Source: Pachysolen tannophilus NRRL Y-2460
Lineage: Eukaryota
DNA length: 64,000 nt
Reading direction: 5' to 3'
Assembly: GCA_001661245.1 (NCBI GenBank)
Contig: KV454014.1
Location: 124,001 to 188,000, forward strand
In this document: positions 6,214 through 63,551 of the stretch, piece by piece
Layout of the letters: every line of letters starts with the position of its first letter
Position numbering within the stretch: the first letter of the stretch is position 1
The notes under the pieces: generated by a model
Databases searched by the model: none
Told to the model about the DNA's origin: nothing
What the model saw: the letters and a program-made list of their open reading frames with translations, nothing else
Program-made: the position numbers and the translations under genes

Positions 6214-7776
6214 ATGACCATTGAAACAGATATTAAATCAATTGCTATTATAGGTGGTGGACCAGCAGGTTTAGCTTCGTTGTACGAGTTACTTCATGTA
6301 TTAAAAGATGGTAGATCTATCTTTGATATTCGGGACACTACTGAGTATAAGTTAAAGAATGAATTATCATTTGAAGAAGTTGTATTATTTGAGAGAAATA
6401 GTTCTATTGGTGGGTTATGGGCAAGGACTGAGGCTGGTAAGAAGGATAATTTAGAGACTAAACTTGGGTTACCTTGTTTAAAAAAAGAGAATTATGATGA
6501 TCCAGAAAAATTTCTTCAAAAAATTGATATACCAGTAGGAGTTAATAATGCAACTTTTGAAAAACCTATTGAAACTATAAATGATTTTTTCGAAGATGAA
6601 TCTAATTGTCGTTGGAGTGGGTCTGGTATATATGAAGGATTATTTACCAATGTTCCAGATAAGTATATGAAATTTTCATATTCTAGTGATAGTGATAGTG
6701 ATAGTGCAAAGACAAAAAATTATCCGAAATTGAATAATCTATCACCATTTGAACAAGTGACACTGACATTAGAAGAGGTTGTTAGTGATAATCATTTAGA
6801 ACCACATATTAGGTTAAATACTTCAGTAGAACTTGTTGTTAAACGTGGGGATAAATGGGTGGTTACATTAAAAAATACTATTAATTCAAGTTCTATATGT
6901 AAATGGTATACACAAGAATTTGATGCTATTGTAATTGCTAATGGTAAAAGTATACCTTTAATTCCTTTTATTCCTGGATTGAAAAATTTTTATGAAAAAT
7001 TTTCTAGAAAAATTGATATTAGACATTCAAAGACTATTTCAAATCCAGCAAATTTTGTTGAAAAGGGTAAAATTTTATTTATTGGTGGGAATATAAGTGC
7101 AATAGATTTAATTCAATATTGTTTCCCAAGAAATCTTGATCCCGCTTCAATTTTTGTATCTAGAAAAAATGAAACAAATTCTACATCATCAGAATGGGTA
7201 AATATCTTGGGATATTCTTATGGTATTAAAAGAAAACCAGAAATTTCAAAATTTAATGATAATGGTGATATTATATTTAGTGATGGTACAATTGAATCTA
7301 ATTTTGATTCTATTATATTTTGTACCGGATATCATATGCATTACCCTTTTTTAGATGATAAAGAACGTAATTTTTTGAAAAGGGCAAATGATTTTTATCT
7401 ACATACATTTTCTCCACATGATCCTACTTTAGCATTGGTTGGAAATTTATTTACTGCATTTTATTTTAATAGAGCTGAAGCATCACTGGCACTGATTGCA
7501 GGTGTTTGGAGTGGATTTAAAAAATTACCTCCTAAAAATGAACAAATTGAATGGATTAAATTTAAACTGCCATCAAAATATCCTATTTGGGATGTTAAAG
7601 AACAATTTATTAAAAATTTATTAGAATATGCCCCTAATGGTAGAAAAAATCCATTAGATATAATTGATAAACAAGATGATTATATAAAAGAATTTAATAT
7701 AGCTCATCAAACTTTGATAAAAATTTTTCTAGATTTAAAAGAAAATTTATATTCTCCAAAAGATATTTATATTTGA
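6214..7776 (+). CDS. Flavin-containing monooxygenase (FMO family)
   Basis: FAD motif IAIIGGGPAG, FERNSSIGGLW, YEGLFTNVP, FDAIVIANG and IIFCTGY. First ATG is 6214; the track starts at TTG 6190. Confidence 0.9.
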   Translation: MTIETDIKSIAIIGGGPAGLASLYELLHVLKDGRSIFDIRDTTEYKLKNELSFEEVVLFERNSSIGGLWARTEAGKKDNLETKLGLPCLKKENYDDPEKFLQKIDIPVGVNNATFEKPIETINDFFEDESNCRWSGSGIYEGLFTNVPDKYMKFSYSSDSDSDSAKTKNYPKLNNLSPFEQVTLTLEEVVSDNHLEPHIRLNTSVELVVKRGDKWVVTLKNTINSSSICKWYTQEFDAIVIANGKSIPLIPFIPGLKNFYEKFSRKIDIRHSKTISNPANFVEKGKILFIGGNISAIDLIQYCFPRNLDPASIFVSRKNETNSTSSEWVNILGYSYGIKRKPEISKFNDNGDIIFSDGTIESNFDSIIFCTGYHMHYPFLDDKERNFLKRANDFYLHTFSPHDPTLALVGNLFTAFYFNRAEASLALIAGVWSGFKKLPPKNEQIEWIKFKLPSKYPIWDVKEQFIKNLLEYAPNGRKNPLDIIDKQDDYIKEFNIAHQTLIKIFLDLKENLYSPKDIYI

Positions 7777-8737
7777 GAAAGAAAAAAAAAGAAAATTTGT
7801 ATTTGTTTACATACAATTGAATTGTCCTTTCTTATTACTATATAATCACACCATAATGTTTGTTTTAGATAGTGGAGAAAAACGGGATAAAGGACATTTT
7901 TATTCAAATAAGGGGTGGTCGTCGTCGTGTTTGGGGCAAAAAAAATGAAAAGAAAAAAAAAGAAATCAATAATACCGCCCCGGATAGGGAACCACGGAAA
8001 AGGAGGAAGAACGAGGTAAGATGAGGCCGAGAGTATGGCCAAAAACCCGCGAAAGCTCAAGGGAAAGGAAAAAAAAAAAGGGCAAGAATAAGGAAAGAAT
8101 AAGGATGGGCCGTGGACCTAAATTCCTATACAAATACACACAACCTTAAAAAAAATAACCCGCGAAAACATTGGTCCAAGCCTTCTTCTCTTGCCTGCCC
8201 GTTTTTTTGGCCCTGCCCTTTGTATTTTTTTGTATTTTTTTGTATTTTGGCCTGGCTCTTTTTGGCCTTAGTACCCCCTATTATCCCCTATTGTTTTAGG
8301 CCTATTATCCTTCTATTGTTTTTTTTTTTCTTACTTTCGCTTCCCGCCTATTTTTACTCCGAAACCCGTTTTCCCAAAATCATACGATAAAAATCTTTAT
8401 GTCCTTGAAAAATTTCTTTTTTAGTATAGGTAGAGAGAGATATTTGAATACTTATTTTTTTTTCTCATACGAGATTTATTACATCTAGTTAAAATATGAT
8501 TAATTAGCCATAATATTAGCAACAATGACCAGTTTTTTTTTTTTTTTTTTTTTTTATATATGATTTTTTCGTTTTTTTTCCTTTAATAAAGAAGTAAAAG
8601 TTTTCTTTTATTTAAAAAATATTATTTATATATATATCTTTTATTTATTTTTTTAAAAGAAAGATTTATTTTGTTATTTAATATTTTTGGAAGATTTAGA
8701 TTGGGTATTAATCTAATAAGAAAGTATTAAATATAAC

Positions 8738-8770
<33 letters not shown>

Positions 8771-8823
8771 TCAGACCTATACATATTTTTAATTTTTAAT
8801 TAAAAGAATATAATATTTTCAAT

Positions 8824-19126: not shown

Positions 19127-21082
19127 ATGAACAAACTAAAGATTTTACAACTGTTATTATTATGCACACTACTATTGATTTTCCATAGCGGCTCAAGTCC
19201 GAGCTTGATTATACTATTTGGAGTTGAAGCTACAACTTTCAATAGTTCTTCATTTCCAATAATGTTATTCAACAATTATCATAATAGGGTGTATACTGCG
19301 AATCTTTCAATTGGAGTTGCTCTGCAAGATGTTCGATTAAGGTTGGATATTTTACAAAGTGATTTATGGGTAATGGATGCAGATTATTTTGACGATTGTG
19401 CAGATATTGATCAAAATGGAGGGAAAGAAGAAATTTCTTCTACATCAACAACAGCTTCTGTGGATGAAAGTAGTAGTACGAGTGTAACTAGTACAGCAAG
19501 TTCTTATTATTCTAGTGCATCTGCTTCTGGAAATAGTTCTTATGAAGAAAATTCTTGTCTGCTGTATGGTGTTTATTATCTGAACGATTCCGAAACATCA
19601 TCTTCAGCTTTATCACTGTATTCACTGGTTGATTTGAATTATATCGATGTTATTGGTTATTACGTGAAAGATGATGTTCAATTTGAAAATTTTAATGGAG
19701 ATGTATTAATGAATTTATCTTCAACTATCTTTGTTAGTGCTAATTATTCAAATGTTGAAGTTGGAGGACTTGGTCTTGCAGCAACATATTCTTCAAATTC
19801 AGGTTTTTTAAATTCACTTATAAATAATAATGTCATCAATTCATCTCTGTATTCGTTGTATTTAGGAGGTTCTAATGCAGAATATGGAGAATTGATCTTG
19901 GGAGCAATAGATCCTTCTAAATATATTGGAGATTTGGTGGAATTTGATTTCATTCCTTTGGATGATTTAACTATAAATGAAGTTACTAATGATTTACCAA
20001 TTGTCCCACTTACTGGAATGTCAGTTATGTCAATCTCTACTGATGAATCTTATTATATTTCTTCTTCAGAAAATGTTACTGCTTACCCTGCAGCTTTAGA
20101 TACTAGAACTTATTATAATTATATCCCAAATGATATGTTGATCGAATTGGCTGTTCAATTAAATTCTTATTATATTGAAACTTCTCAAAGATGGGTTGTC
20201 GAATGTGATATTGCAAGTTTAAATGCAACTATTGATTTCAAATTTGGAAATTTATCTATAAGTGTTAAATTGGATGAATTGATTTATTATGCCTATGATA
20301 CAAATGGAACAGCATTGGTTTTTGAAACTACTGGGTCTCGTGCTTGTTTCTTGGCATTTTTACCAAGTGATTTTGAAGGTTTTGTTTTACTAGGAACACC
20401 TTTCTTAAGATCAATTTATCTAGCGGTAGATAATGAGGGTAAGAAATTAGCAATGGCACAGGCAAATTTAGGTAAATATGAAGCCATATACAGTGAACTC
20501 AATCCTGGGACAACATTAACCTCGAAAAGTGAATCCGCAGTAACCCTGATCACTTCTTATTTGTTATACGAAACAACTTCAGGGAGTTCCGAAACTACAA
20601 CCACAACTACTTCATCATCATCATCTTCATCTTCTTCTTCTTCTTCATCATCCAAGTCCTCTTCATCCAAGTCCTCCTCGTCATCTTCTGGTTCTTCTTC
20701 CACTTCGGAATCCGATGCAGATAGCACAACTATAGATACTTCATATTCTCTAGAAACAGGAGCATTAGAAGCAATCAGCTCAGATTATATACCATATGCC
20801 GTAACAAATAACATCACAGCATATGACGAGTTAACATTAACCAGATCCACAACTTCTCCATCGGGTTCAGCAAACCCTGAAGAAACTGCAATCGTTTCAG
20901 ACGGTGAAATTTATTTTACTTCACCACAAACCACAGGGACTACTACATCAGGCACCTCTTCTTCAAGTTCTAATGGAGGGAAAAGCATAAAATTCATGTT
21001 TAATACCAATGATCTTAGTGCTCATTTTACAATCTTAGGATGGATTTTCATCGTTACAATTGGCATATTAGTTCTCCTTTGA
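19127..21082 (+). CDS. YPS7: Yapsin-like (Yps7-type) aspartyl protease homologue, predicted GPI-anchored
   Basis: Signal peptide; YTANLSIG, LDILQSDLWV, AYSLYL (with CTG=Ala), GELILGAIDPSKYIG, LDTRT and LLGTPFLRSIY. Ser/Thr stalk and hydrophobic C-terminal tail. Confidence 0.8.
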   Translation: MNKLKILQLLLLCTLLLIFHSGSSPSLIILFGVEATTFNSSSFPIMLFNNYHNRVYTANLSIGVALQDVRLRLDILQSDLWVMDADYFDDCADIDQNGGKEEISSTSTTASVDESSSTSVTSTASSYYSSASASGNSSYEENSCLLYGVYYLNDSETSSSALSLYSLVDLNYIDVIGYYVKDDVQFENFNGDVLMNLSSTIFVSANYSNVEVGGLGLAATYSSNSGFLNSLINNNVINSSLYSLYLGGSNAEYGELILGAIDPSKYIGDLVEFDFIPLDDLTINEVTNDLPIVPLTGMSVMSISTDESYYISSSENVTAYPAALDTRTYYNYIPNDMLIELAVQLNSYYIETSQRWVVECDIASLNATIDFKFGNLSISVKLDELIYYAYDTNGTALVFETTGSRACFLAFLPSDFEGFVLLGTPFLRSIYLAVDNEGKKLAMAQANLGKYEAIYSELNPGTTLTSKSESAVTLITSYLLYETTSGSSETTTTTTSSSSSSSSSSSSSSKSSSSKSSSSSSGSSSTSESDADSTTIDTSYSLETGALEAISSDYIPYAVTNNITAYDELTLTRSTTSPSGSANPEETAIVSDGEIYFTSPQTTGTTTSGTSSSSSNGGKSIKFMFNTNDLSAHFTILGWIFIVTIGILVLL

Positions 21083-27837: not shown

Positions 27838-27979
27838 ACCAAATAAAATAAATAATTAAATATTCCAGTATAAGAATTAGAAATATAATTAGATAAAATA
27901 TAGCATATTTTGTATATAATACATTTTCCATTATGGTATTTTCACCTGCTAAAAGGGAAAGAAAATTTGCTGGCGCAAA

Positions 27980-28131
27980 GGCGGAAAATTAGGCGGAAGA
28001 ACGGGCGGAAGAACGGACGGGAGTTTGGACGGGAGTCTAGGCGGAAAAAGAAAAATCAAATTCAAGTGTGCAGGCGGAAAGTCAAGGCGGAAATTAGGGC
28101 GGATGCATTGGGCGGAAGTGTTCGGCGGAAG
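27980..28131. repeat. Degenerate 12-13 bp periodic GGCGGA array upstream of the cyclin gene
   Basis: GGCGGA at 27980, 27992, 28004, 28040, 28073, 28086, 28098, 28111 and 28124, with GACGGG variants at 28016 and 28028. Confidence 0.85.
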
Positions 28132-30139: not shown

Positions 30140-30171
<32 letters not shown>

Positions 30172-35999: not shown

Positions 36000-37673
36000 A
36001 TGAGATTAATCTTGTTAATTTTTTCCATTTTGGCAATTACAATTGCTGAAAGTATAAGAGGTGTTGCTCCTGAAGGTAAGTTTTAAGTTTTTTTTTCCCA
36101 TCCCACCCTCCTCCACAATGATTTATTTTATTTAATTGATGATATTTAAAACTAACTATTTTTTTATTATTATTAAAAAAATTGTTATTGAATAGATGAA
36201 AAAAAATATATTCCAAATGAATATAATCAATGGGCTTGCTTGAATAATCCAGAAATTATAATTGATTTTTCAAAAGTGAATGATGATTATTGTGATTGTC
36301 CCGATGGAAGTGATGAACCTGGAACTTCTCTGTGTATTAATGGTCGATTTTATTGTGAAAATAAAGGTTATATTTCAAGTTATATTCCATCTTTTAAAAT
36401 AAATGATGGAGTTTGCGATTATGAACAATGTTGTGATGGGAGTGATGAATATGGTACTCCAATTAATTGTCCAGATAGGTGTAAAGAAATTAATGATGAA
36501 TATTTAAAACTGATTTCTATTAAAAATGAAATAACTAAAAAAGGTTTACTGAAAAAACTGCAATTACTTAAAAATGCAATTTTTGAAAAAGAAAAATTAT
36601 TAATTATAATTGAAGAATTAAATAATGAAATTTTTAAAAAAAATGAATTATTATCAAAATTAAAGATTGAATTAAAAGAAAATCCAGAATTAAATGAAAT
36701 TCCAACTTTAATTGATAAATTAAATCCAAAATTAAATAAAATTAATGAATTATTAAATTTAAAAAATTTACAAATTAATTCAAATCTTGAAAAAATTTCA
36801 AATTTAGAAAAAATTTTAATAAAATTAGTTGAAAATTATAATCCAAATTTTAATGATATAGCAGTTAAAGAAGCTGTTAAAAATTATCAAGATTATTCAG
36901 TAAATAAAGATGAATTAAATGAAAATATTTCTAATCAAGATGAAAAAAATCAAATTATAACAGAATTAATTGATGAAATTAATAATTTTGATTCAGAATT
37001 TTCAATTGGAAAAACTGATTCATCATTAAATTGTGAATGTGAAAATAAAAATTTTCTTGAAAGATTAGAAGAAAATTTTGAATATTTACTTGATCAATTT
37101 TTAGGAACACTGGATAATTCAAATTTTAAAAATGAAAAAATTCAATTAAAAAATAATAAAAATAATAAAAAAAATAATAAAAATTTAAATGGTGGTAAAC
37201 ATAATTCTAAAATAGAAGAATTAGAAAAAGAAATTGATAAATTATCAAAAGATTTAAATTATTATAATTCTGAAATCTCTTCACAAAAATATGGACCAAA
37301 TGATATTTTAAGAGCTTATAAAGATAAATGTATAAATAAAATTTATGGTGAATATAATTATAAATATTGTTTCACAGATGAAGTTAAACAAGAAGGAAAT
37401 GGTCATAACGTATTAATTGGTAAATTTGATAGAGTTTCAAATAATATAGCTGAAGAAAAATTACAAATCATTTATGAAAATGGTGCTAAATGTTGGAATG
37501 GACCTATTAGAAAAGCTATTATAGATGTTGAATGTGGTGCAGATGAAGAATTATTAAGTGTTACTGAACCTGAAGTTTGTCAATATTTTTTCAAAGTTAA
37601 AAGTCCAATTGCTTGTTTTGAATCAAATGATCAATTAAATCACAATAGTGAAGTCACAAGAGATGAATTATAA
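36000..37673 (+). CDS. GTB1: Glucosidase II beta subunit; join(36000..36075,36196..37673)
   Basis: Exon 1 encodes the signal peptide MRLILLIFSILAITIAESIRGVAPE. LDLa-like VNDDYCDCPDGSDEPGTS(A)C, MRH domain YENGAKCWNGPIR...EPEVCQY and C-terminal RDEL. Confidence 0.92.
36076..36195 (+). other. Spliceosomal intron of GTB1 (120 nt)
   Basis: GTAAGT at 36076, branch point ACTAAC at 36151-36156 and TAG at 36193-36195. Splicing restores the frame (G|AT=Asp) and the signal peptide. Confidence 0.9.
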
Positions 37674-37969: not shown

Positions 37970-38794
37970 TCAACTTACAAAATAAACCTTATGTCCAACA
38001 ACTTTAGCATTTAAAAGAACTTTTTTTGAAGGTCTTTCTGATTTTGATTTGAAACCTTTAACAGAAGAATAAGTCATTTTAGAATCTTGTTCACTTTCTT
38101 TTAAATTTTCAAAAAATTTAACTGTTTTTAAAAAATCATCATAACAAGAATTTGAATTTTTAAATCTAATGTAATGACTTTTCTTAAACTTGTACTTTAT
38201 CAAGAAATTTTTCAATATATTTGATAAATTTTCCTTTTCTAATTTTTGAATCTTATTCTTTATTTGCTTTGTAGTAATTGGTTTTGTCAAATATGATAAT
38301 TCTTCTTCATTTAAATCTTCAATGTTATCAAAAACAGGTTTTATAATACCTTTTTCAATTAATTCCTTTTTAGATGGTCTCTTACTTAATAATCTATCCA
38401 ATGAATTTCTTTTAAAAAGTTTGGTTAATAATGTAATAACTTCAAAATTATTAATAACCCCATCATTTGAAAGAAATCGTTGATTAAGATACATTCTATA
38501 AGACAACACTCGCCAATTATAAAGATCAAGTAAAGATGGCCTTAATTCAAACCTAAACCAATTGTTCAATCTGATTCGAACTTGTGAATTTCTTTGATTT
38601 AATAAAAAATTAAAATAATATTGTGTTATTATCTGATTAAAAAATTTACTAGTACATCTTATATTCTCCAAATCATCAAAATCAAGATAACCAACTACCA
38701 GTAAGATTAATTCCAATGGTAAATTCAAAATACAAAACTCCTTAGCAATAATAGGAGAAACGTTATAAGTGTAATATGTTAAATGATCTTTCAT
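37970..38794 (-). CDS. F-box protein with RPEL-like repeats
   Basis: F-box ILNLPLELILLVVGYLDFDDLENIRCTSKFF. RPEL-like LDRLLSKRPSKKELIEKGII and a weaker RPSLLDLYNWRVL. Confidence 0.78.
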   Translation of the reverse strand: MKDHLTYYTYNVSPIIAKEFCILNLPLELILLVVGYLDFDDLENIRCTSKFFNQIITQYYFNFLLNQRNSQVRIRLNNWFRFELRPSLLDLYNWRVLSYRMYLNQRFLSNDGVINNFEVITLLTKLFKRNSLDRLLSKRPSKKELIEKGIIKPVFDNIEDLNEEELSYLTKPITTKQIKNKIQKLEKENLSNILKNFLIKYKFKKSHYIRFKNSNSCYDDFLKTVKFFENLKESEQDSKMTYSSVKGFKSKSERPSKKVLLNAKVVGHKVYFVS

Positions 38795-41525: not shown

Positions 41526-41860
41526 NNNNNNNNNNNNNNNNNNNNNNNNNNNNNNNNNNNNNNNNNNNNNNNNNNNNNNNNNNNNNNNNNNNNNNNNNNN
41601 NNNNNNNNNNNNNNNNNNNNNNNNNNNNNNNNNNNNNNNNNNNNNNNNNNNNNNNNNNNNNNNNNNNNNNNNNNNNNNNNNNNNNNNNNNNNNNNNNNNN
41701 NNNNNNNNNNNNNNNNNNNNNNNNNNNNNNNNNNNNNNNNNNNNNNNNNNNNNNNNNNNNNNNNNNNNNNNNNNNNNNNNNNNNNNNNNNNNNNNNNNNN
41801 NNNNNNNNNNNNNNNNNNNNNNNNNNNNNNNNNNNNNNNNNNNNNNNNNNNNNNNNNNNN
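41526..41860. other. Assembly gap (N run) flanked by a duplicated ~190 bp segment
   Basis: Run of n characters; 41334-41525 reappears at 41861-~42050. Confidence 0.97.
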
Positions 41861-43412
41861 CTACACACACACATATACACATACACACCCCCACCCCTCG
41901 TCCACAGCCCTTAAAAAGGACTAATTAATCCGAATAGGAAGATAACTCCGTGTATCTAAACAATCAAGTTTTTGTATACAACATGGTGAGAGGTTGTTAA
42001 CTCACTCATTGAGCAAAGGGGTTTTTTTTAAAAAGAAAAAAAAAAAAGAATACAAAAAACCACCCGCCCACCTTATCAACTCTATATGCAATTGCAATTG
42101 TTGTTGTTTTGTTTTTTTTTACCCCCTCCCACCTCCTGCCCATTTAAACATTAATACCTTTCTTGTTTTGCCAGTTTTTATACTACCCTCACTCACTACA
42201 TTCTTTTTACGCCTATATCCGATTCAGAAGGGTCATAATTAAAAAAAAGAAAGAAAAAAAAAAAAAAAAATTCAATAGGCAGGCCTTTTCAGGCCTTTTC
42301 AGGAGCTTGTGAAAAAAAAAGCTTAAGCCAATTATCAGGTGTTGATAAAAACTTTTTACTGAAAACGGTCCGGAATTTTTCAAATTACAGAGGTTTATAA
42401 ACTTGCATAATGCATATTACTACTTACAAAAAAAAGTGTCTTTTGAGTATCATTCTCTAAATTACGCTGTGGTTCCCTTGGTTTCACTACGGTATTATTA
42501 TTTACGCATTATAGCGAGCGACTCTTTGATTATTGTATTTGTCTATTTTTCACTTTTGTTACTGGTTTTTAAGGGAAAAGAAAACTTTTTCCTATATACA
42601 AAGTATGGTATCTATCTATTTTAACAATTTGATATTTTTTTAATTCAGGTTTTTTTATCTTTTTTCTTTAAAAAAGAGTTAACGAAATTGTGAAATAAGA
42701 GAAAAAATGTAAGCATAGTTTTTTTTTTTCCAATGATGATAATATAGTTTCCATTTGGATTATGAAAAGAAAAAAATAGAAGTTCAATATTAATACCAAT
42801 GTTTGTTTTTGATTTAGTTTCAATTTCCAGTTTTCTTTATTATTTTAAAAGAAATTGGTTTGAACTTTTTTTTTTTCTTTGTTTTTTTTTTCTGCTATTT
42901 TTCTTTTTTTGTTTGGTTTTTGATTTGTTTGTTTGGCTTTCGTTTTGTTTTTAACAATATAGAGAAGCTACGCTTTCAAAGATATTTATTAACTTAAATA
43001 TCAAACTTTAAAAAGTCTTGTTTTATTAAAAATTTGGTATAAAGGTAATTTTTTATTCATTTAAAAAGTTACTTTTCGTTTTCATATATTCTTGGACTTA
43101 TATATTTGGTTTTCCAAATTTTTCAACTTTCTTTAGTTTTTTACTTCATCTATTGATTGAACAAATTTGTTTATATTCAATTATTGTTGTTGTTATTGTT
43201 ATTACTGCTTAAGAAGTGAAATAAAGTATTGGAAGAAACTTATAAGTTCAAAAAGAATTTAAAGAAAACCCAACTCTTTAATAATCATACACTACTGCAA
43301 ATACTCTAGGTTTATATGGTTTCCGGTTCTTATCACTCTATTTTTTTTGATTTTTTGAAAAAAGGGAAAACAAAAAAAAAAAAAAAAAAAGAGAAGACAA
43401 ATATTTTAGACT

Positions 43413-44300
43413 ATGGCTTTAGCAAATAGCAGACCGGTTGGTTTTCCTGATCCAACTTTATCGCCTGACTTACACCAATTAGACTTGGCTGCTTCTCCGT
43501 CCTCTTCACCAAGCTCGAGATTTGAAAGAAGTGTTTCACCATCTTCAACTACATCGTCATTTTCGTCCGCATCGACTGCAGCAACCTCGGTGACCGGAAT
43601 TAGTAACGATTTGGGTGCTGATCCTGATAGAAAATCTTCGATTGCTACTGTCACGTCTGGTATTAATGCTGTAACTATTAATTCAGTTTCTACACCTCAA
43701 TCTCAACAAGATGGAGGAAATATTACACCAGAATCAATAGTTTCAAGTAATAATGGTAATGGTAATGGTAATAAGGAAAAAAAGAAAAAAGATCCTTCAG
43801 CAAAGAAAAATCCAAATAAGGTTTCATCAAGAATTAGTTCGGCAACTGGTATTTCAAGTGCAGTTCCTGTAACTGGAGAAAGACCAAGACCAACTGCACA
43901 TCCAACTATGGATGATGATGTCTTTTTCGCTATTTTCCAAATCTTATATGATCATGATTCTGAAGCTAAAGGTATGACTGTTAAACAAATTTGTGATGTT
44001 CTTGCTGAAAAACATCCAGAAATGGATAAATTATCAACAAAAACTTCAAATCTTGTTTCTGCGAAATTGAATGCTTATGTTAAAAGAGTTGAGAAAGGTG
44101 AAAAAGAAGTTATTTATGCTTTATCAAGAGATTGGGCAGATGCATCTCCAAAGAGAATGGTTTATGTTTACAGAGGTTTGTTAACCCCAGATTATTACAT
44201 TACCGCTCGTGCCATGTGGCAGAAATTGGAAGCTGAAGGAAATTTGTTTCCTGATAGAAGTAAAGAAGAAGAGAAAAAGGCAAAGAAGGTTGAAAAGAAA

Positions 44301-44334
<34 letters not shown>

Positions 44335-45179
44335 CAAGCTCAGGTTCAAGTGCTAGTCCTGTTTCTAACTCATCATTAGCTGCTTCTAGTTCTTCTGTCA
44401 CTTCAACTGGTTCTACTCTTTCTAACTCAAATTATAAAGGAACAGGATCTATTACAGGAATTGATATGAATGTTGATATTAAAAATTCTCTTGATATTTC
44501 ATCATTTTCAGATGGCTCTTTAGATTTGAGACTTCCAACTTTATCTATTCCATACTCTGTTGCTCCCGTTACTGCTTCCTTAGGATCCGCTTTAAATCTT
44601 GTAAAAGAAAAAGATGGTGATAGTTTAAATGCTGAACTTCCATTAATTGCAAAGTCAAATCACATGACTACATCTCATCCTTCTTCTTCATCTTCATCTT
44701 CTTCGTCATCTTATTATACTAGAAGAATGTTCACCCATCCAAAGACAAAAGATGAATTTGAATTAGATGAAATTGATACTTTTTACGATGATGAGTTTGG
44801 TGATATCGATTTTGCTAGATTATCTCAAAGAGATAATAAAAGATCAAAATCAATGTCTTTCTTGCCTAACAAAAAGGCTAGATACATTACCGCAGCTGCT
44901 GCGGCTCCAAGAATTGAAAGAAGAATTTCTGCTACTTCTCCAAAGATGGCTGCTGCTGCTGCTGCTTTAAGAGAAGCAGCAATCAAGGCTTTATCTCCAG
45001 CTGAATCTGGTGTTTCGAGTCATGGAAGATCGTTGTCTATTTTCAGTGTCTCTTCTGTTGACTCAGAACCTGCTGTCAGTGCAAAGTGGCTAAAAACTAT
45101 TCGTTCTGGTTTCTTAACTCAAGATATTTCAATGCCAGAAGAAGTCACTCTTGATGAATTGGATTCATTGTTCCAATGA
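43413..45179 (+). CDS. GDS1: Gds1-like protein
   Basis: PVTGERPRP, DDDVFFAIFQILY, GMTVKQICD, SNLVSAKLNAYVK, LSRDWADASPKRMVYVYRGLL, a C-terminal WLKTIRSGFLTQDI..PE motif and adjacency to CIR2. Confidence 0.85.
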
Positions 45180-46076: not shown

Positions 46077-48077
46077 TCAAGTCATTTGGTACTTTGGACC
46101 ACCACCACCTTCTGGAACTTCCCAATCAATATCCTGTGTTGGGACTTTAATATCACAAGTTTTACAATGTATACAATTTTGAGAATTTATTTGGAATTTC
46201 ACACCTAATTCAGATTTTTCATCTTCAACATATTCATAAACACCAGCGGGACAGAACCTAGCCTCAACACCTTTATACTTTGGGAAACTAATCTTTGCAT
46301 GTTTTTCCAAATCTTGATTTGGGACTCTTAAATGACATTGTTCATCTTCCTGATGATATGTACCTGTTCTTGAAACTGAAGTCAAGATATCAAATGTAAT
46401 ATGTCCATCTGGTTTTGGATATTCAATTGGGGTATATTCACTTGCTAAATGAGTTTCAGAACTATCAGATTTATGATGTTTTAAAGTATAACTTTCAAAA
46501 CCTCTTGTAATCATTGTTATCAACCCTGATGCAACCATTCCTCCCCATACTCCAAATGGAGTTCCAAAAGATGGACGAACATTTCTTACTTCGTATAATT
46601 CATCATGAACCCATGAAAGCTTATAGTCTACTTCGTATGATTTTAATTCAATCGAATCCCACTCTTGATATTGTGGTAATATTTCTTCATCAGCTTCTTT
46701 TTCTTCAATTTCTTCATCTTCTTCAGGTTTTTGCAATGGGCCAACTTCTTGTAAAACTTCAAAAATGTTATCAGCTGCCATCATACCAGATTTCATTGCT
46801 GTGTGAGTACCTTTGATCTTTGGAACATTCATGAAACCAGCAGATTCTCCAACTAATACACCACCAGGGAAGTATAATTTAGGAACAGATTGGTATCCAC
46901 CTTCATTAAGTGCTCTTGCACCATAAGAAATACATTTACCATCTTCCAAGATATCTTTATAAAAAGGATGAAGTTTCATTTTTTGAAACTCTTGATAAGG
47001 TGAAATCCATGGATTTGCATAATCAAGACCCACAACTAATCCAACAGTAACTAATCCATCACCAAAATGATATTGGAATCCACCTCCATAAACATCTGAT
47101 GTCAATGGATAACCTAAAGTATGAGCAATATAACCTTTTTTAAAATTTTCTGGTTTAACTTCCCATACTTCTTTTAATCCAATTCCATAAGTTTGATTTT
47201 GTTTACCTTCTCTTAATTTAAATTTCTTGATCATTTTTTTACTTAAAGATCCATGACAACCTTCTGCTAATACTGTCATTCTTGCAAGAAATTCCATACC
47301 TTTTTCAAATTCAGGTTTTGGAACTCCTTTCTTGGAAATACCCATATCTTTAGTAACAACACCTTTAACACCACCTTTAGTATCATAAAGAACATCATCA
47401 ACAGAAATACCAGCATATATTTCAACCCCCAATTCCTCAGCTTTTTCAGCAAGATATTTTACAACTTCACTCAATGAAGCAATATAATTTTTCCCCTTAT
47501 TTATCATTTGAGGAGGCTCTGGAAGTGGAATAGCAGTTCCTCCTTCAAATAAAAATTTCATATGATCTTCTTCAACTAAAGTAACCAAATCTGGTGGAAG
47601 TGGTATTCCTCCCCCATTTTCATCATAAAATTCACTATCTGGAAATAATTCTCTTAATGCTCTTGGCTCCAATACTGCACCAGACAAGATATGTGAACCC
47701 ATCCCCGGGGCTTTTTCCAATATAACAACTCTTAAATCACCATTTCCCTTTTCATTATCCAATTGCTTCAATCTGATGGCAGTAGCTAATCCGGCAGGAC
47801 CTCCCCCAACAATACAAACATCTACAATATCACTTGCTCTTTCTTGTCGAAGCATCTCCTGTTCTTCCTCCGACATTTCATCAAAACTCACCTCCTCAGA
47901 TTTTTGGAAAGCTCTACTTGTTGAGAATGTCCGATAATTTCTAATTTTACTTTCATAATTCCAATTTTTCAACCTCAATTGTAATGGCATAGATGACGAA
48001 ATAGACCTAGAAACATTTTTCAAAAAAATACCTCTACGAAAAATTATTCTGGGTACTATCGATAACCCCAATCTCAT
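46077..48077 (-). CDS. CIR2: Mitochondrial ETF-ubiquinone oxidoreductase
   Basis: DVCIVGGGPAGL, GSHILSGAVLEP, YGARALNEGGYQSVPKL, NVPKIKGTHTAMKSG and the 4Fe-4S motif FCPAGVYE...NCIHCKTCDIK. Confidence 0.96.
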   Translation of the reverse strand: MRLGLSIVPRIIFRRGIFLKNVSRSISSSMPLQLRLKNWNYESKIRNYRTFSTSRAFQKSEEVSFDEMSEEEQEMLRQERASDIVDVCIVGGGPAGLATAIRLKQLDNEKGNGDLRVVILEKAPGMGSHILSGAVLEPRALRELFPDSEFYDENGGGIPLPPDLVTLVEEDHMKFLFEGGTAIPLPEPPQMINKGKNYIASLSEVVKYLAEKAEELGVEIYAGISVDDVLYDTKGGVKGVVTKDMGISKKGVPKPEFEKGMEFLARMTVLAEGCHGSLSKKMIKKFKLREGKQNQTYGIGLKEVWEVKPENFKKGYIAHTLGYPLTSDVYGGGFQYHFGDGLVTVGLVVGLDYANPWISPYQEFQKMKLHPFYKDILEDGKCISYGARALNEGGYQSVPKLYFPGGVLVGESAGFMNVPKIKGTHTAMKSGMMAADNIFEVLQEVGPLQKPEEDEEIEEKEADEEILPQYQEWDSIELKSYEVDYKLSWVHDELYEVRNVRPSFGTPFGVWGGMVASGLITMITRGFESYTLKHHKSDSSETHLASEYTPIEYPKPDGHITFDILTSVSRTGTYHQEDEQCHLRVPNQDLEKHAKISFPKYKGVEARFCPAGVYEYVEDEKSELGVKFQINSQNCIHCKTCDIKVPTQDIDWEVPEGGGGPKYQMT

Positions 48078-48672: not shown

Positions 48673-51354
48673 CTAATGAACTTCTTCTTTGACCAAAATA
48701 GTTAATAGCCTTTCTTCTTCATCCATATCTAGCCAGAAATCTTTAGCCATGGTCCAATCTTCGTCACCAGCTAAGTCTATGTAATCTCCATCATCATCTT
48801 TATATTTTAATTTTGTATTTACAGTGACAGCAAATTCGGGAATTGATCTTTCTAATTTTAAGAAAACTAAAGCTCTCATCATACTATAGCTTGAATTTTT
48901 AACAACTGAAATGTGGAAACTTTCATTACCGTACAAGATTCGAACTTTTACATCTTCATCTGAATTAGAAGATGCAGGTGATGAAGTCATGCTTAAACCA
49001 TTCATTGGTGTTATTATTGAATTTATGGAGCTTGATGTTCTATTATTATAAGCATTTGGAGTTGAAAAAGATCTAAATTTTTCTGGTGGACCTCCAGCAC
49101 CAGAAGATGAAGAATTACCACCTAATGATCCATAATTATGACCATTATTATATTCTGTTATATGATGATCTGACAGTCGACGGAATCCATTATTATTAGT
49201 TCCAACAGTATTAGTAGTATTACTTGGAAGTTTTGAAGCACTTCCAATAGAAGCTGTTCTAGGTGCTGCATTAATAAATTCTTCTTGATATGAATTAAAT
49301 GAAGTTCTAGCAGATGCATTATTACTTAAAGGTGAATAAGTATCAAATTCACTATTTCTTCTAGATAATGAAGAGTTTAACTCTTCAGTTAAATTTCTTA
49401 AACAATTTTCCCATTGTGATCTACTTTCTTCTGATTGAAATCTTAATATGAAAACACCTGTATCTTTACTACCTGTCCAACTTATAGTTAAATAATGCCC
49501 TGTTACTCCATCTTTCTTATTACTTGTTGTTAAATTATCTATATTTGCAATGAAAATCCTTCCTTTTAATTCCAATTGATATGGTTTAATATTATTATTA
49601 TTATTATTATTTCCAATTCCATTACCAATACCATTACTATTAATTGAATTATTATTATTATTTAAAGAAGCATTTGATGAACCACCATTATTATTATTAT
49701 TATTTAATGAACTTGTTGATTTTTTCCTAATATCCAAAATATTTTTCTTTGTTGGTGGAATAATTTCACTAAAGAAAAAAATTATTTTTTCAAAAAGATA
49801 AGCTTTAAATTCTCTTTCTGGTCTAGTATCTGTTACACCTAATGTACCATGAAATAATAAATCACCAAAATTTGAAGGAGAATAACCTCTCCAATCTCTT
49901 ACATTATCTAACAAATATTTAAAATGATTAACATTTTCAGCTCTTCTTTGAACTTCATTAATATTATTTGCAAAATTTTTAGCAGCTTTTAAAGCTTTAA
50001 TTAATTCATTATAATTTAAACATGTTGAATCTGAATATTTTACTAAATCTGATAATAATAAATGATATTTACAAACTCTTTGAATTGGTTTAATAAGAAA
50101 ATATTGTAATTCATCTGGAACACTTATTAATGTTGAACTTCTTCTTAAATTATTTACTTCTTGAACAATTAATTCATTTGCAGCATTTAAACCAACAGGC
50201 CATGCTTCATATGCTTTAAATGGGAAAGAAATTGCATGTAAAAAAACTGAACCTATTCTTTGATAAGATTCAGAAACTTTTGCATTTAATTCTAATCCAA
50301 CAAGAAATTTTCTTTGAAAATCAACAATTTCTGTTAAATTTGGAAATAAAATATGTATCAGTTCTGGAGAAACTAATTCTGCTTTTTCTAATTCATATTT
50401 AAATTGTAATAAAATTTCTAAATGTTGAACATAAGTTCTTTCACTTTCAACAATTTCTTTAATAACTTTTGATCTTGAATCTGGAGTTTCTAATTCATAA
50501 ATTTGTGAAATTTTTGGATATTTTAAATCTAAAACTAAATTAACAGCTTTAATAACTTTTAATAAATCATTTGTACTATCAGAATAAACATCTGAAATAG
50601 TAAATAATTTATCATCAACTGTTTTTAAATGTGTTTTACAATAATATAAAAAATCATAAACACTTTTTTTACAAATTCTTAAATCTGTTGATGTAAAAAT
50701 TTCAATTTTACCAGCATTATTTAAATTTAAAGAATTAAATATAACACAAAGTGGTGCTCCTTGTTGAAATAATTTCCAAACCACTGTAACAGGATCAAAA
50801 CTTACTTTTGTAGGTAACCTTCCAGCTGCAAAAGTATATAAATTTGTTGAAGTAGCTGCAAACAGATCTGATGAATTAGAATTAGAATTAGAATTAGAAC
50901 TCAATGGAGTCTGTGGAGACCATGTATTACTAGCCACAGTACTTGAACCCCCAAACGATAACGAATTATAAGATTTCCTCATACTACTTCTTGAACTATT
51001 CCCATTATCATTATTGACATTAACATTAACATTAGTATTAGTATTGACATTATTATTGACATTAGTATTATTCCCTTGAAAATGTCTAAAAGACTCTTCC
51101 AATTGATCTAATGCCAAAGATTGTTGTTCAACACTCAATTCAGCTGTAGACCTAGCAAAAACCATATAAGTATCCATTCCAGGAACTTTCTCTAACCTCT
51201 TTAACAAAGTAAGGCATATATAATATAACGATTCACTAGCATCTCCTTTAACATTCATAGCTAATGAAGCTGCAGGTAAAACCCCTTTCGAATTCGTCTT
51301 AATATTGATTGGTAAGCTCGAGCTAGAGCTCGAAACAGAACGTGATGCTGTCAT
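48673..51354 (-). CDS. CDC24: Cdc42 guanine-nucleotide exchange factor (CH, DH, PH, PB1)
   Basis: DPVTVVWKLFQQGAPLCVIFN, CKKSVYDF, EIVESERTYVQHLE, LIKPIQRVCKYHLLL, YLFEKII and PB1 KYKDDDGDYI. First ATG 51354. Confidence 0.95.
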   Translation of the reverse strand: MTASRSVSSSSSSLPINIKTNSKGVLPAASLAMNVKGDASESLYYICLTLLKRLEKVPGMDTYMVFARSTAELSVEQQSLALDQLEESFRHFQGNNTNVNNNVNTNTNVNVNVNNDNGNSSRSSMRKSYNSLSFGGSSTVASNTWSPQTPLSSNSNSNSNSSDLFAATSTNLYTFAAGRLPTKVSFDPVTVVWKLFQQGAPLCVIFNSLNLNNAGKIEIFTSTDLRICKKSVYDFLYYCKTHLKTVDDKLFTISDVYSDSTNDLLKVIKAVNLVLDLKYPKISQIYELETPDSRSKVIKEIVESERTYVQHLEILLQFKYELEKAELVSPELIHILFPNLTEIVDFQRKFLVGLELNAKVSESYQRIGSVFLHAISFPFKAYEAWPVGLNAANELIVQEVNNLRRSSTLISVPDELQYFLIKPIQRVCKYHLLLSDLVKYSDSTCLNYNELIKALKAAKNFANNINEVQRRAENVNHFKYLLDNVRDWRGYSPSNFGDLLFHGTLGVTDTRPEREFKAYLFEKIIFFFSEIIPPTKKNILDIRKKSTSSLNNNNNNGGSSNASLNNNNNSINSNGIGNGIGNNNNNNNIKPYQLELKGRIFIANIDNLTTSNKKDGVTGHYLTISWTGSKDTGVFILRFQSEESRSQWENCLRNLTEELNSSLSRRNSEFDTYSPLSNNASARTSFNSYQEEFINAAPRTASIGSASKLPSNTTNTVGTNNNGFRRLSDHHITEYNNGHNYGSLGGNSSSSGAGGPPEKFRSFSTPNAYNNRTSSSINSIITPMNGLSMTSSPASSNSDEDVKVRILYGNESFHISVVKNSSYSMMRALVFLKLERSIPEFAVTVNTKLKYKDDDGDYIDLAGDEDWTMAKDFWLDMDEEERLLTILVKEEVH

Positions 51355-53834: not shown

Positions 53835-56800
53835 TTAGACAGAAGCTGCCGGAGCTCTGCCTCCTGCAGTTCCTAACAAGTAACTATGTTGCAATTCCTG
53901 ATCACAACTATTACAATATTCTATTAAACTTTCTGTATTTGCTAGCATCTCCCTTACTGCATCGTCTTTTAAAGCTGCTGTATTTCCTAAAATTTCATCT
54001 TTAACAAAATGACATCTTTTAACTTCATTTAAAATCCAATTTTTCCATTCTCCATATGCTAATTCTTCTTCTGCCTTGTTGATGATTTTCAAATTAACCA
54101 AGAGCTCATTTCTTTTCAATCCTAATTCAATAAAAGTTTTCTTCAAATTTTCAATTGTTTTATATGAATTATCAGGCAGCAGCAGTTGCATCTGGTTGTG
54201 TTTTTGAGAATTTGTATTATCATCATTTACAAAATTTTCATTTAAATTTAAAATAAATGAATTATTTTTAAATTTATGGAAACATTGTGATTCAGAATTA
54301 TTGTAAGACATAGTTTCACCATTCGATATTAAATCTTCAATATCTTTTAAATATATGGCTCTTTGCATGATATTAGATGTACGTTGAAGAGTATACTGAT
54401 CCATCATCTTACCAACTTCTCTCACAGTCCAATAAGAAGTTGTAGTTCTAACACTTATATAGACATTATAAAAAGTTGATAATCCTAATAACATTACCAA
54501 GACCCAATGAAGTCTGATTCCTTTTAAAAAAGTGGTGAATAACGATAATAAAATTATGAATAAAGTCTTGACAATATAGAAAAAAGTACTTAAAGATTTT
54601 CTTAATGAAGCTCCGGCAACAACAGACCATCGAACATATATTAAATCTTGATTTTTTCTTTCTCTTTGTATCTTGTCAGCTAAACCAGGATTTGTTTCAT
54701 CATCCACTTGACTAATCTGTCCAAATAATCTAATCGCCTTCACTACTTTACCATGAGACCCAATTATTCTAATAGCTTCATTAATATCTTTATCCAATTT
54801 TTTCTCAGTTTTTATCCTAGAAGTGGCAATCATAATCTTGTTGTTTACAAAATTTATACATTTACAAATAAAATTAAAGTTCTTGTTATCACCGAGATAA
54901 TCAACTTTAGTATATATCAAAAGTTTACAATTTTTAACATTTAAAGAATATATTACAATTCTTGTCTGAACTTTAAATGCTGTAGAACATGGGAATTTGA
55001 AAAATTGAGTTTCTTGAATAATATTGTAATACTTGCTATTAATAACATCTTCAATTGTTTGATTTATAATTGTAGTTTGAAATTCATAATCATCTAATAT
55101 AGTATCAGTTTTAAAAGATCTAAGTAAATGATGAGTATTTTTATTTAATCTCCATAATGACATTGGAATATTTTCATTTCTCATATCAATAAAAGGTAAT
55201 ATTTTTTGCAATACAAAAGAATCATCACCTAAAAGAAAATGAAATAATGCTTTAGAAGGTATTTCATAAATTTTATCCCATATTAAAGTCATTTCATTTT
55301 TATAATTTGTCTTCATCTGTACTTGAGAATCATCATCAATAGATTTAACAAAAGATGGAATAATTTTTTTATGTCTTTCTTTAAATGAATTTTCATTTCT
55401 CTCCTTCTCTTGTAGCTCATGTGATATTCTAATATTTTCAAATTCCTCAATTAATTCTTTTAAATTTTTCTGTTTAGAAGGTTCTAATATCTTATTTTTA
55501 ATCAATGCTGAAAATTGATCTTTAATCAATTTCCCAGAATCTAAAAATAATTTTGCTCTAATTGTTAATCCACTAATTTCATAAACTTTTAAAACATCAC
55601 AAAATTCATCTTCATAACTCTCAAATGATACAATTTCACTTAAAGGTTTAAATAATAAGCTTATAAAATTCATGCTATTCATATAAAAATAAACATTTTT
55701 TTCTGTTACAAAACATCTACCGGATAATTCTTGTTTACTATTTGGTAACCAAATTGATCTAAACTCTAATAAAAGATGCTCATTTGGAACAACTACTGAT
55801 TCGAATAATGACTTTAATTGTACATCAAAAGGTTTTAAATAATTTGGATAATAACTAGGGTATCTTTCAGAAAAAGATTTCTTTGGTTCAATTAACCATT
55901 TTTGTTGCGTTTCCTTTGATGGTATCAGTTCTGGTTCATTCAACAAATAATACATTCCCCAATTAACAGACCCCCATATATTGGCAGTTATAGCACTGGG
56001 TATTGTTGTAGGAGATAAGAATGAATTCGATACTACTGCTTCTTTAGTCAATTGAGTTACTGTTGGAGTATTTAATAATATACGTGCAGTTAATCCATCA
56101 GTTAAAAATTCCGAATCTTTTGTCACATATTGTGATAAATGATTTTGTATTATTGAAGACATAGAATTTTCTTGATTTATAGTAGTCAATTCCATATCAA
56201 TAGAAGTATTAGCGGTAGAAGCAAATTCATTAAGTAAAGGTGGATACCTACCAAATGCAGAATCATCATTCCCATTCAGTTGAGTTTGTTCTGATAATAT
56301 TTTTTCTTTTACAACTTTGAAACATTTCAACCAACTTTTCAATTCATATAAAGTTTCCAGTTGAAATATAATTGAAGATTCTATTGTTTTCAATTCAAAA
56401 CAAAACCTTCTTTCTTCATCTGGACAATATCTAATATTACATAATAAAACTCCAATTTTATCTGTTTCCTGAACAAAAGTTTTTGAAGGACTTAAAACCA
56501 AGAGTCCAAATATTCCATCTTTAATAAAGACCCATCTTCTTACCCAAACTTGACGAACTGGTTTCCCTGTGCTAGTCTTCATAAAGAGCCATCCATGTTT
56601 TTCATAAGTAACTTCAGAAAAATTATCTAATAAAGTTGATGAATTAATTAATGTAGAATCATGATCACTTAATTGACGTGAAGGTTCAAATTGTTTTATT
56701 GTACTTTCTTCTGTTTGCTTTCTAGATGCATCCATATCTTTTGATAAAGTTTTCACAGAAAAATCAAATGATTTGTAAAACATTTTAATTCTTTTTGTTT

Positions 56801-57551: not shown

Positions 57552-57622
57552 AACTTGAGCTAATCAAAGGGCACACAGGCAAAAACAAAAACCAAAAAAA
57601 AAAATTCAATGGAATTGATGAT

Positions 57623-57659
<37 letters not shown>

Positions 57660-58005: not shown

Positions 58006-59018
58006 CTATACGTTTGAAAGAAGATGACCAATTTGTTGGAAATAATTTGGAGTAACCAATTTTTCAATTTCTTCCTTTGTCAACCATCTAAATTCTTTAA
58101 TATTTTGTGAAGGTTGTAATTGAAATTTACCTGCCAATATATGTGATTTAATCAAGTATTCTCTTGAAATATTAGTTTCATCATCATTATTAGCATCATT
58201 AGAATTTGTATCTATAATCAATTTTTTATCCTTTGAATATTTTAAAACTGCTGTTGGAGTATTAGATACAGTCCAAGTTTTAATTAAATCACCACCAAGT
58301 TTCCTTAAACCTTCTTCAGCAACGATATGTAATGGTTTTAAATCTTTTTCTAATTGAAATGATGGGAATTTCCAAATATTATTTTCATTTGTATTTATAA
58401 CAAGGTATAAAGTACGTGATAATTTTCTTTCTAAACTTTTAAAATCATTTAATTCATCAGATTTTGTAATTCTTGAATTTGGTTGTATTGGTCTTGAAAT
58501 ACTATTTGAATCTTCTTGTCCTGAAGTTGAAGAAGTTTCTTCTCTTGGAATAATAATTTCTTGTTTATATCTTCTTTCTCTATTATGCATTATATCTGGT
58601 ACACCTTTAGGAAACCAAACACCTGGTTGTTTTGAAACAGGTCCTCTTTGAGCATCAAGAAAACGACGTTCTGCTAAAGTACCTTTTCTAAAATAAAAAA
58701 ATTGAGGAAAAGTCCACATAAGACGACGTGAAAGTTCTTCCTGGTATTTGTAATATTTTTTTTCAAAATCATTCATATCCAGTGTTACAATTGGATTTCT
58801 AGATAAAAGTATTCCAGCATTTATTAATGAATTAGAATTTGAAACTTCATTCTTTAATACTAAACATGATGAAAAATTTCTCTTATTTATACCTATAATC
58901 AAAAAAAAGAAAGTAAAGTTAGTTAATGTCTCTTTTAAGTTTTTTCTGTTTTATTCAACAAATTTTTTCACTTTAACTTACTATTACAACTACTACCTAT
59001 TCTCAAATTCTTGAACAT
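58006..59018 (-). CDS. MRPL17: Mitochondrial ribosomal protein mL46; complement(join(58006..58892,58982..59018))
   Basis: EKKYYKYQEELSRRLMWTFPQFFYFRKGT, SLERKLSRTLYL and WLTKEEI. Exon 1 (MFKNLRIGSSCN) supplies the missing ATG. Confidence 0.92.
58893..58981 (-). other. Spliceosomal intron of MRPL17 (89 nt)
   Basis: On the minus strand: GTAAGT at 58981, AACTAAC at 58924-58918, a polypyrimidine tract and TAG ending at 58893. The join A|GT=Ser is in frame. Confidence 0.88.
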
Positions 59019-59867: not shown

Positions 59868-59899
<32 letters not shown>

Positions 59900-60002
59900 A
59901 CCATCAGATATTTGATTAATCTGAGTAGTTAATAGTAATATTTTAAAAGTCTTTTTTAATAAATATAAAAGAAAGTAGTCGAATCGAGTGATTTAAAAAA
60001 AA

Positions 60003-62003: not shown

Positions 62004-62336
62004 ATTTTTCCTTTTTTTTTATTCTTTTTCTGTTTTTATATATATAGTCTTCTTGGTAATAAAAAACATGAATTCTTTTATTCGGTTTTGTAGTATTCTG
62101 TTCTTTTTTAGAGCGGCTGGAAAAGTCAAGACATGAGTCTCTTCAATGAGATGATCAAGACAACGAAAGAGAAAAGAAAGAGTAGAATGTGATAATTCAA
62201 TCTCTATCAAAAATAATATTTTACCTGATGGAGGGTGGTATTAAGATTGGGAAATGGACAATCGATAGATTTCTTTACAATAAAGTTATTACACTAGATA
62301 AAGTACAATATATATCAGAAAAGTTTTCAAATTTTT

Positions 62337-63551
62337 TTATAAACCTTCTTTTGCTAAATTATCTATAATATCTAAATATAATGCCACTGCGTTGAACTTT
62401 GGTTTTTCTCCTAATATTGCTTCAGAATAATATTTCCTTATAGTGTTTGTCCAATTAATCAAATCCAAATGATCAACATTCTCCAATGTTCCTAAATATT
62501 TCCCCCATTTAGAAGATTCTACACCAACCATCCCATCATTATCCCCCTGAGTCTCATAGATGATTTTCCATGAGAAATAAAACACATTATAAAAACTTGG
62601 TACAAACCTTGAGCCATAACTAAAATATTTGACATTGGAATCATCAGGTACTTCTTTATTAAAATGATTATTGACATAATCTGTAGTCAATTCGAATATG
62701 CTTCTTGGTATGATTTTTTGTAATGGGCCTTGTTTCACTTCCTTATCACTTAATTTAAAGTTGTTGATAATATAATCAGCCATTCCTGAACCATGATGAG
62801 GAGATGAAATTGTAGTCAAACTCATAACTTTATAATTTTTTTGTTCTATTTTTGAAATCAAATATCTTGCATCTAATCCTCCCATTGAGTGAGCTATTAA
62901 GTTAACCTTTATTGGTTCATCTTTAGGATTTTTATCTGTACCAGAATCTTTACCTTCCTCATGATAAATCAAATTTGCATCATCTTTTGTATCTTGTCTT
63001 AATTTAATAATCTTTGTCTCTATGAACTTGTTTAATGCATTTGCTCTTTCTTCTATACTACCAAAAGGAGGTACTCTTGCTACTAATACAGTACATCCTT
63101 TCAGATCTAAAGCTTCCTTAATACCATGCCAATAATTAAAATAAAACCCTCCATTTTCCTCCGCTAATTCTTTTCCAACAGATTCTGCTGTTTTACCAAA
63201 TGATTGATTTAAAGATATGTTGAAATTATGTAAAAATCTTCTTATAGGAGGAACAATGAAAAGTCTATCAAACCCTGAAAACCCATGGCATAGCACTATG
63301 GGATACTTTGGTGTTTGATAGTCATCTCTTAGACCTGAAAATTTATCAACAATAATTATGTCCTCTTCGTTACTGACATCTCTGGTACTATTGGCAAAAT
63401 TTCTGCATGATCCATCTCTACTATGCAACGACAACTCATAATGACGAGTAGTAACAACAGTTAAGGGCACCAAGCTCAAGAAATAATGATGGCGAAACTT
63501 GGGGATCATTCCTTTCATTTGTAGGGATATCAATGATATTCTAGGGATCAT
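62337..63551 (-). CDS. TGL2: Mitochondrial triacylglycerol lipase (Tgl2-like)
   Basis: PKYPIVLCHGFSGFD, YWHGIKEAL, VNLIAHSMGGLDARY, LTTISSPHHGS, NDGMV and DHLDLINW. First ATG 63551. Confidence 0.9.
   Translation of the reverse strand: MIPRISLISLQMKGMIPKFRHHYFLSLVPLTVVTTRHYELSLHSRDGSCRNFANSTRDVSNEEDIIIVDKFSGLRDDYQTPKYPIVLCHGFSGFDRLFIVPPIRRFLHNFNISLNQSFGKTAESVGKELAEENGGFYFNYWHGIKEALDLKGCTVLVARVPPFGSIEERANALNKFIETKIIKLRQDTKDDANLIYHEEGKDSGTDKNPKDEPIKVNLIAHSMGGLDARYLISKIEQKNYKVMSLTTISSPHHGSGMADYIINNFKLSDKEVKQGPLQKIIPRSIFELTTDYVNNHFNKEVPDDSNVKYFSYGSRFVPSFYNVFYFSWKIIYETQGDNDGMVGVESSKWGKYLGTLENVDHLDLINWTNTIRKYYSEAILGEKPKFNAVALYLDIIDNLAKEGL

Follow-up and report, generated by a model that had tools for sequence, protein, structure and literature searches.

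The 64-kb stretch of DNA analysed here (the window) is AT-rich (A 22,147, T 22,993, C 9,671, G 8,853, N 336) and is an ordinary budding-yeast chromosome arm, in whose genes the codon CUG, CTG in the DNA, is very probably read as alanine. Its open reading frames with 150 or more codons number 21, to which I added a frame for glucosidase II beta that starts without an ATG, and Pfam names most of these frames, the added one included. The genes named in this way encode a flavin monooxygenase (FMO), a helix-loop-helix protein, FMP23, a sugar-nucleotide transporter (listed as YMD8 in the original prediction), a yapsin-like aspartic protease, RAD9, a cyclin, a Zn-cluster factor, glucosidase II beta (GTB1), an F-box protein, a cupin/JmjC protein, GDS1, an ETF-ubiquinone oxidoreductase, CDC24, an ERV41/46-type protein, SIP3, the mitoribosomal protein mL46 (MRPL17), NRD1 and a TGL2-like lipase. 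A script counted 88 in-frame CTG codons among the 13,930 codons of 22 genes or gene parts (6.3 per 1000), with at least one CTG in 18 of the 22 (82%) and about four per gene.

The original prediction, made from the sequence alone, held that these CTG codons occupy positions at which the respective protein families have alanine. In the queries of all searches CTG was masked as X, so that the alignments were not biased by the query. The alignments of three proteins comprise 161 homologues (34 for FMO, 119 for SIP3 and only 8 for the yapsin-like protein, for which Ser-rich words swamped the candidate list), and for each codon the log-odds of each of the 20 amino acids were summed over all columns that were at least half filled. 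This left 14 CTG columns, as five further CTG sites of the three proteins were dropped because a residue was present there in fewer than half of the homologues. All codons with 10 or more columns were assigned their standard amino acid, with CTG as the sole exception; the other mismatching codons were six in number (TGC, GAC, CAC, CGA, CGT and ACG), with 1 to 9 columns each. At the CTG columns alanine scored +6.7 bits, followed by serine (-5.0), threonine (-12.7), glycine (-18.1) and leucine (-30.8), which places alanine 37.5 bits above leucine and 11.7 bits above serine. The statement in the original prediction that conserved leucines are written with TTA, TTG and CTT is borne out by the 62 columns with at least 70% leucine, where the codon is TTA in 35, TTG in 17, CTT in 3, CTC in 2, CTA in 1, a non-leucine codon in 4 and CTG in none. 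At the same threshold CTG is also absent from the 35 conserved serine columns, and it is found in 3 of the 24 conserved alanine columns. Leucine is the most common residue in 2 of the 14 CTG columns versus 131 of the 225 columns of the other leucine codons (Fisher p = 0.0016), whereas alanine is the most common residue in 4 of the 14 CTG columns, compared with 12 of 222 serine-codon columns (p = 0.009) and 39 of 86 alanine-codon columns (p = 0.38, no difference). The signal at the CTG columns exceeds chance.

Relatives that share this code were sought through leucine at conserved alanine columns, and no such signal was present among the closest homologues. Five SIP3 homologues from run assemblies (P0225, P0233, P0239, P0256 and P0257) have leucine at 3 to 4 of 14 conserved serine columns, a pattern that is expected if CUG-Ser yeasts had been translated with the standard table in the database concerned.

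Eight individual CTG positions had been put forward as examples of alanine sites, and all eight are indeed CTG in the frame of the gene named (for genes on the minus strand, the coordinate marks where the codon starts when that strand is read). As alanine columns they fared less uniformly: four are clear, one is weak, and the three in YMD8, TGL2 and MRPL17 are uninformative (Table 1). The GTB1 codon at 36330 faces alanine in all three distinct solved homologues (human, mouse and Chaetomium-type chains), and the score against the Pfam family PRKCSH-like is highest with alanine (A 187.4, T 185.8, S 185.5, V 183.3, L 182.8 and G 182.4 bits). Among the 119 SIP3 homologues, the column of the codon at 56360 contains 94 alanines, 16 threonines, 6 valines, 2 cysteines, a single serine and no leucine, and the scores against the Pfam PH profile are highest with alanine (A 42.6, T 41.2, V 40.6, S 39.9, L 39.3 and G 38.7 bits). 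The two FMO codons at 7486 and 7492 each face alanine in 26 of 33 homologues. The yapsin-like codon at 19847 is the weak case; the column consists of small residues, with alanine in the plurality (A 3, S 2, G 1, T 1 and V 1 in eight homologues). The first codon of an adjacent CTG pair in the same gene, at 19559, falls in a similar column (S 4, A 3, T 1), in which the three closest relatives have alanine, while the column of the second is mixed, again in eight homologues.

Taken by themselves, the remaining three examples do not point to alanine columns. At the YMD8 codon the two applicable Pfam families contradict each other, as UAA favours glycine, threonine and alanine over leucine (G 46.0, T 45.1, A 45.0, S 44.4, V 43.4 and L 43.0 bits) and TPT favours leucine (L 41.1, T and V 40.5, A 40.3, S 40.2 and G 39.8 bits). 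The TGL2 codon faces Q, R and Q in three bacterial lipase chains, and Pfam scores S slightly above A, within a spread of 1.3 bits across all readings. The MRPL17 codon faces S in the mL46 of Saccharomyces cerevisiae and R in that of Neurospora, and MRP-L46 scores A and T equally (130.7 bits each, with S at 130.4 and L at 128.5). When the cupin/JmjC protein, TGL2 and MRPL17 are compared with solved structures, the residues facing CTG are variable.

Table 1. Positions in the window of the CTG codons and other features discussed in the text
Feature	Position	Strand	Basis or remark
Span of the 88 in-frame CTG codons	521..63104	both	codon count by script
FMO, CTG pair in conserved Ala columns	7486..7494 (7486-7488, 7492-7494)	+	homologue alignment
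FMO, CTG in hydrophobic column, counter-example	7567..7569	+	homologue alignment
YMD8-like sugar-nucleotide transporter, CTG in transmembrane helix	16918..16920	-	Pfam scores
Yapsin-like, adjacent CTG pair in small-residue columns	19559..19564	+	follows conserved Cys
Yapsin-like, CTG at Ile column in most relatives, counter-example	19625..19627	+	homologue alignment
Yapsin-like, CTG preceding conserved YSLYL motif	19847..19849	+	homologue alignment
GTB1, CTG in conserved Ala column	36330..36332	+	Cys-rich DGSDEPGT-x-x-C motif, glucosidase II beta
F-box domain, CTG	38699..38701	-	Pfam scores
CDC24, three CTG (first bases 50865, 50361, 49176)	48673..51354	-	public copy P0281
SIP3, CTG in PH domain, conserved Ala column	56358..56360	-	homologue alignment
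MRPL17 (mL46), CTG upstream of first in-frame ATG	58780..58782	-	solved homologues, Pfam
TGL2-like lipase, CTG	63102..63104	-	solved chains, Pfam
CTG-free genes (four)	26623-27837, 43413-45179, 46077-48077, 52191-53429		
Gene with a single homologue	3-3470	-	10 CTG
Yapsin-like gene	19127-21082	+	
Zn-cluster factor gene	31725-33176	+	13 CTG in 483 codons
GTB1 frame	36192-37673	+	no ATG at start
mL46 frame	58006-58884	-	first ATG at 58776
Gene-poor stretches (three)	27838-31724, 33177-36191, 41032-43412		
Assembly gap	41526-41860		335 N
Lone N	19056		
Open frame reaching the window end	63741-63998	-	86 codons, no CTG

A second test made use of Pfam profiles and covered 11 proteins that have a CTG inside or near a Pfam domain and contain 38 CTG codons in all, each protein being scored by the family that covers the CTG. 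Translations with CTG as leucine, serine and alanine (tables 1, 12 and 26), and also as threonine, glycine and valine, were compared. The summed scores are again highest for alanine (994.4 bits), followed by threonine (990.1), serine (988.1), valine (973.9), glycine (972.7) and leucine (972.5). Alanine outscores leucine in 10 of the 11 proteins, the F-box protein being the exception, and it equals or outscores serine in 9 of the 11, with the F-box protein and TGL2 as exceptions. The margin of alanine over leucine, valine and glycine is large, at about 21 bits (21.9 for leucine). Both likelihood tests thus rank alanine first, with leucine about 22 to 37 bits and serine 6 to 12 bits behind.

Public protein records give the same residue. 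The public copy of FMO (P0010) has alanine at all four CTG codons, those at 7486 and 7492 among them, and the public copy of SIP3 (P0160) has it at all six. A public collection (sources NCBI, UniRef, nr and MetaClust) contains an exact copy of CDC24 as translated with table 26, with alanine at its three CTG codons, and the table-1 translation is absent from the same collection. CDC24 was the only one of five proteins with such a match; the yapsin-like protein, TGL2, YMD8 and the cupin protein have no exact public match under any of the tables tried, a probable reason being that the open reading frame calls used here do not coincide with the deposited gene models. As the three public copies have alanine at 13 of 13 CTG codons, the depositors may be inferred to have used table 26 in annotating this genome.

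The original prediction also assigned the genome to the clade of Pachysolen, and the phylogenetic position of SIP3 agrees with this. A maximum-likelihood tree was built from 28 rows, namely the query, five close homologues, and 22 named yeasts and outgroups; the clade labels which I take to apply are used for Wickerhamomyces, Lachancea, Trichomonascus and Nadsonia. In this tree the query branches as the sister of Kuraishia, Komagataella and Pichia (Shimodaira-Hasegawa-like approximate likelihood-ratio test, SH-aLRT, 96), and the group so formed is sister to Babjeviella together with the Candida and Debaryomyces yeasts of the Ser1 type (92). Saccharomycopsis and Ascoidea, which are labelled Ser2 in the available part of 10.1101/2023.07.05.547863, are placed elsewhere, and the query lies outside both the Ser1 and the Ser2 groups. 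By E-value, the best named match of SIP3 is Saccharomycopsis crataegensis (40% identity, BLASTP). According to the accessible sections of PMC5951914, the Ala clade consists of Pachysolen, Nakazawaea and Peterozyma and the Leu2 clade of Citeromyces, Kuraishia, Komagataella, Ogataea and Pichia, the split between the two being a deep division within the Pichiaceae. The position of the query matches the place that those sections give to the Ala clade.

Several observations speak against an alanine CUG, or limit the weight of the tests. Alanine is the most common residue in only 4 of the 14 alignable CTG columns, and in another four, FMO 452, yapsin 167, yapsin 9 and SIP3 425, it is one of L, I, V, M or F; at SIP3 425 methionine leads, in 28 of 115. 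The FMO codon at 7567 faces L 10, I 5, F 4 and V 4 times in 32 homologues, and the yapsin-like codon at 19625 faces isoleucine in six of eight homologues (S and Q once each). The F-box domain is the sole Pfam domain of the 11 that scores leucine above alanine (by 1.6 bits; L 34.9, S 34.8, T 34.1, V 33.4, A 33.3 and G 31.8). In the Pfam test the margin of alanine over threonine (4.3 bits) and serine (6.3 bits) is modest, and the column and Pfam tests have three proteins in common and are hence not independent, so that their scores must not be added. The gene at the left edge of the window aligns five CTG codons with its sole homologue P0280, where they face S, N, L, Q and L. The SIP3 tree represents one gene, with long branches in three of its Leu2 (Pichiaceae) rows, and the public annotation reflects a decision of the depositors and is no independent measurement.

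Could CUG then be serine, as in table 12, with the alanine-like columns merely accepting small residues? Serine is second or third best in both likelihood tests, it is the most common residue in two yapsin CTG columns, its Pfam score is slightly above that of alanine in TGL2 and the F-box protein, and a Saccharomycopsis protein is the best named SIP3 match. However, its deficits of 11.7 bits (columns) and 6.3 bits (Pfam), the presence of CTG in 3 of 24 conserved alanine and 0 of 35 conserved serine columns, the rarity of serine at the four strongest CTG columns (1 of 119, 3 of 33, 1 of 33 and 0 of 3), the place of the query outside Ser1 (Candida) and Ser2 (Saccharomycopsis and Ascoidea), and the alanines in the public copies make a serine code highly improbable. 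The standard code, under which the alanine-like columns would be a chance effect at a rare codon, can draw on the F-box domain and on two columns in which leucine is the most common residue (FMO 452 and the yapsin signal peptide). It has to contend with deficits of 37.5 and 21.9 bits, with the scarcity of leucine as commonest residue at CTG relative to the other leucine codons, and with the absence of CTG from all 62 conserved leucine columns, and I consider it practically negligible.

Alternatively, decoding may be mixed, mostly alanine with a share of leucine or serine, similar to the stochastic Ser/Leu decoding reported for Ascoidea asiatica. A hydrophobic residue is the most common one in 4 of 14 CTG columns versus 13 of 86 true alanine-codon columns, P0280 has leucine opposite two of the five aligned CTG codons, and the fidelity of decoding is not measurable from sequence data alone. 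The difference between 4 of 14 and 13 of 86 is a small one that depends on few sites, though, CTG is found in no conserved leucine column, and in Pachysolen 97.2% of the fully supported CUG positions are alanine by mass spectrometry, as given in the available text of PMC4937558; such a mixture is therefore very improbable. If CUG were not a clean alanine codon and were decoded as leucine or some other residue in a small but measurable share of cases, this would explain the hydrophobic residues in 4 of the 14 columns, but such decoding is very improbable as well.

The window is thus very probably part of a chromosome from the CUG-Ala clade of budding yeasts (order Alaninales), either of Pachysolen tannophilus itself or of a close relative, and CUG is read in it as alanine (table 26), a reading which the likelihood tests, the public copies and the SIP3 tree all support. 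The sequence evidence by itself excludes leucine firmly, and serine and threonine only moderately; the position in the tree and the public annotation close most of the gap that is left for the latter two. What the present analysis itself shows is where CTG falls in the proteins, how the query is placed in the tree and how the public records are annotated. The finding holds and is already known, not new: the reassignment was published in 2016 (PMC4937558), and as the deposited record is already read with table 26, the question of novelty is settled.

The available text of PMC4937558 describes 16,824 CUG positions in 5,288 predicted proteins of Pachysolen tannophilus, 80% of which contain at least one, with CUG chiefly where alanine is conserved, and alanine at 97.2% of 907 fully supported positions by mass spectrometry. 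The window agrees with these figures, with CTG in 82% of its genes, at about four per gene, and at conserved alanine columns. The likeness to Pachysolen extends to the absence of CTG from conserved leucine and serine columns, its presence in about 80% of genes, the position beside the Leu2 group of Pichia, Komagataella and Kuraishia, and public records that read CTG as alanine; no difference was found. With the CUG-Ser1 clade (Candida albicans and relatives, table 12) the window shares the removal of the same codon from leucine and the rarity of CTG, and the two belong to related yeasts, sister groups in the SIP3 tree. However, CTG marks serine columns in that clade, whereas in the window serine scores 6 to 12 bits below alanine and no CTG lies in a conserved serine column, and the query stands outside the clade. 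The CUG-Ser2 clade (Saccharomycopsis and Ascoidea, with stochastic Ser/Leu decoding in Ascoidea asiatica) likewise consists of budding yeasts with a reassigned CUG, and among the named homologues of SIP3 that of Saccharomycopsis is the most similar, but the clade is separate in the SIP3 tree and the columns of the window follow an alanine pattern rather than one of serine or leucine.

The mechanism is taken from the literature. CUG would be read by a tRNA with anticodon CAG that derives from an alanine tRNA and would be charged by alanyl-tRNA synthetase; the original CUG-leucine codons would have been lost, and the present CTG codons would have arisen anew, mostly where alanine is accepted. 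A Pachysolen tRNA-CAG on an alanine tRNA body, with the G3:U70 pair and without a long variable arm, is described in the available part of PMC4937558. Within the 64-kb window, ARAGORN detected no tRNA gene and Rfam gave no match to any RNA.

The CTG codons adjoin glutamine codons more often than expected: window-wide, 24 of the 88 are flanked by CAA or CAG, where 7.4 would be expected. The CTG codons of the Zn-cluster factor gene lie mostly within poly-Gln runs, and such CTG-rich runs become Gln/Ala-rich tracts under table 26; a change from CAG to CTG takes one base.

Some individual genes deserve mention. The GTB1 frame does not begin with an ATG, and that of mL46 continues as an open, homologous sequence upstream of the first ATG; both genes probably start in a short upstream exon that is followed by an intron. 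The yapsin-like protein is without both canonical catalytic motifs. At the catalytic positions the five distant homologues have D-T-G-S and D-T/S-G-T, and D-I-L/I-Q/N and D-T/S-R-T/S stand there in the protein of the window as well as in its three closest relatives. The protein of the window may be a non-catalytic protease homologue. The protein encoded at the left edge, which extends beyond the window and is at least 1156 amino acids long, matches no Pfam family and has a single homologue (P0280, 34% identity) in a collection of 5.8 billion proteins, and it appears to be lineage-restricted.

Between the genes there are three gene-poor stretches of 2.4 to 3.9 kb, which flank genes for regulatory proteins (the cyclin, the Zn-cluster factor and GDS1) and contain neither an open frame that matches Pfam nor an Rfam match. 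Of the open frames between genes, the 78 with 55 or more codons were tested, and none gave a Pfam match above its cut-off. The frame at the right end of the window resembles part of another protein-coding gene and has no Pfam match at E 0.001. The overlapping open reading frames crowded around 41.4-41.9 kb are due to the run of N in the assembly gap.

Reassignment of a sense codon in the nucleus is very rare, and CUG as alanine is known from one small clade of yeasts. In practice it matters here for correct translation: under the standard code 88 residues, spread over 18 of the 22 genes of this window, would be mistranslated, and conserved alanines of GTB1, SIP3 and the flavin monooxygenase are among them. 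The code can be recognised from 64 kb of raw sequence.

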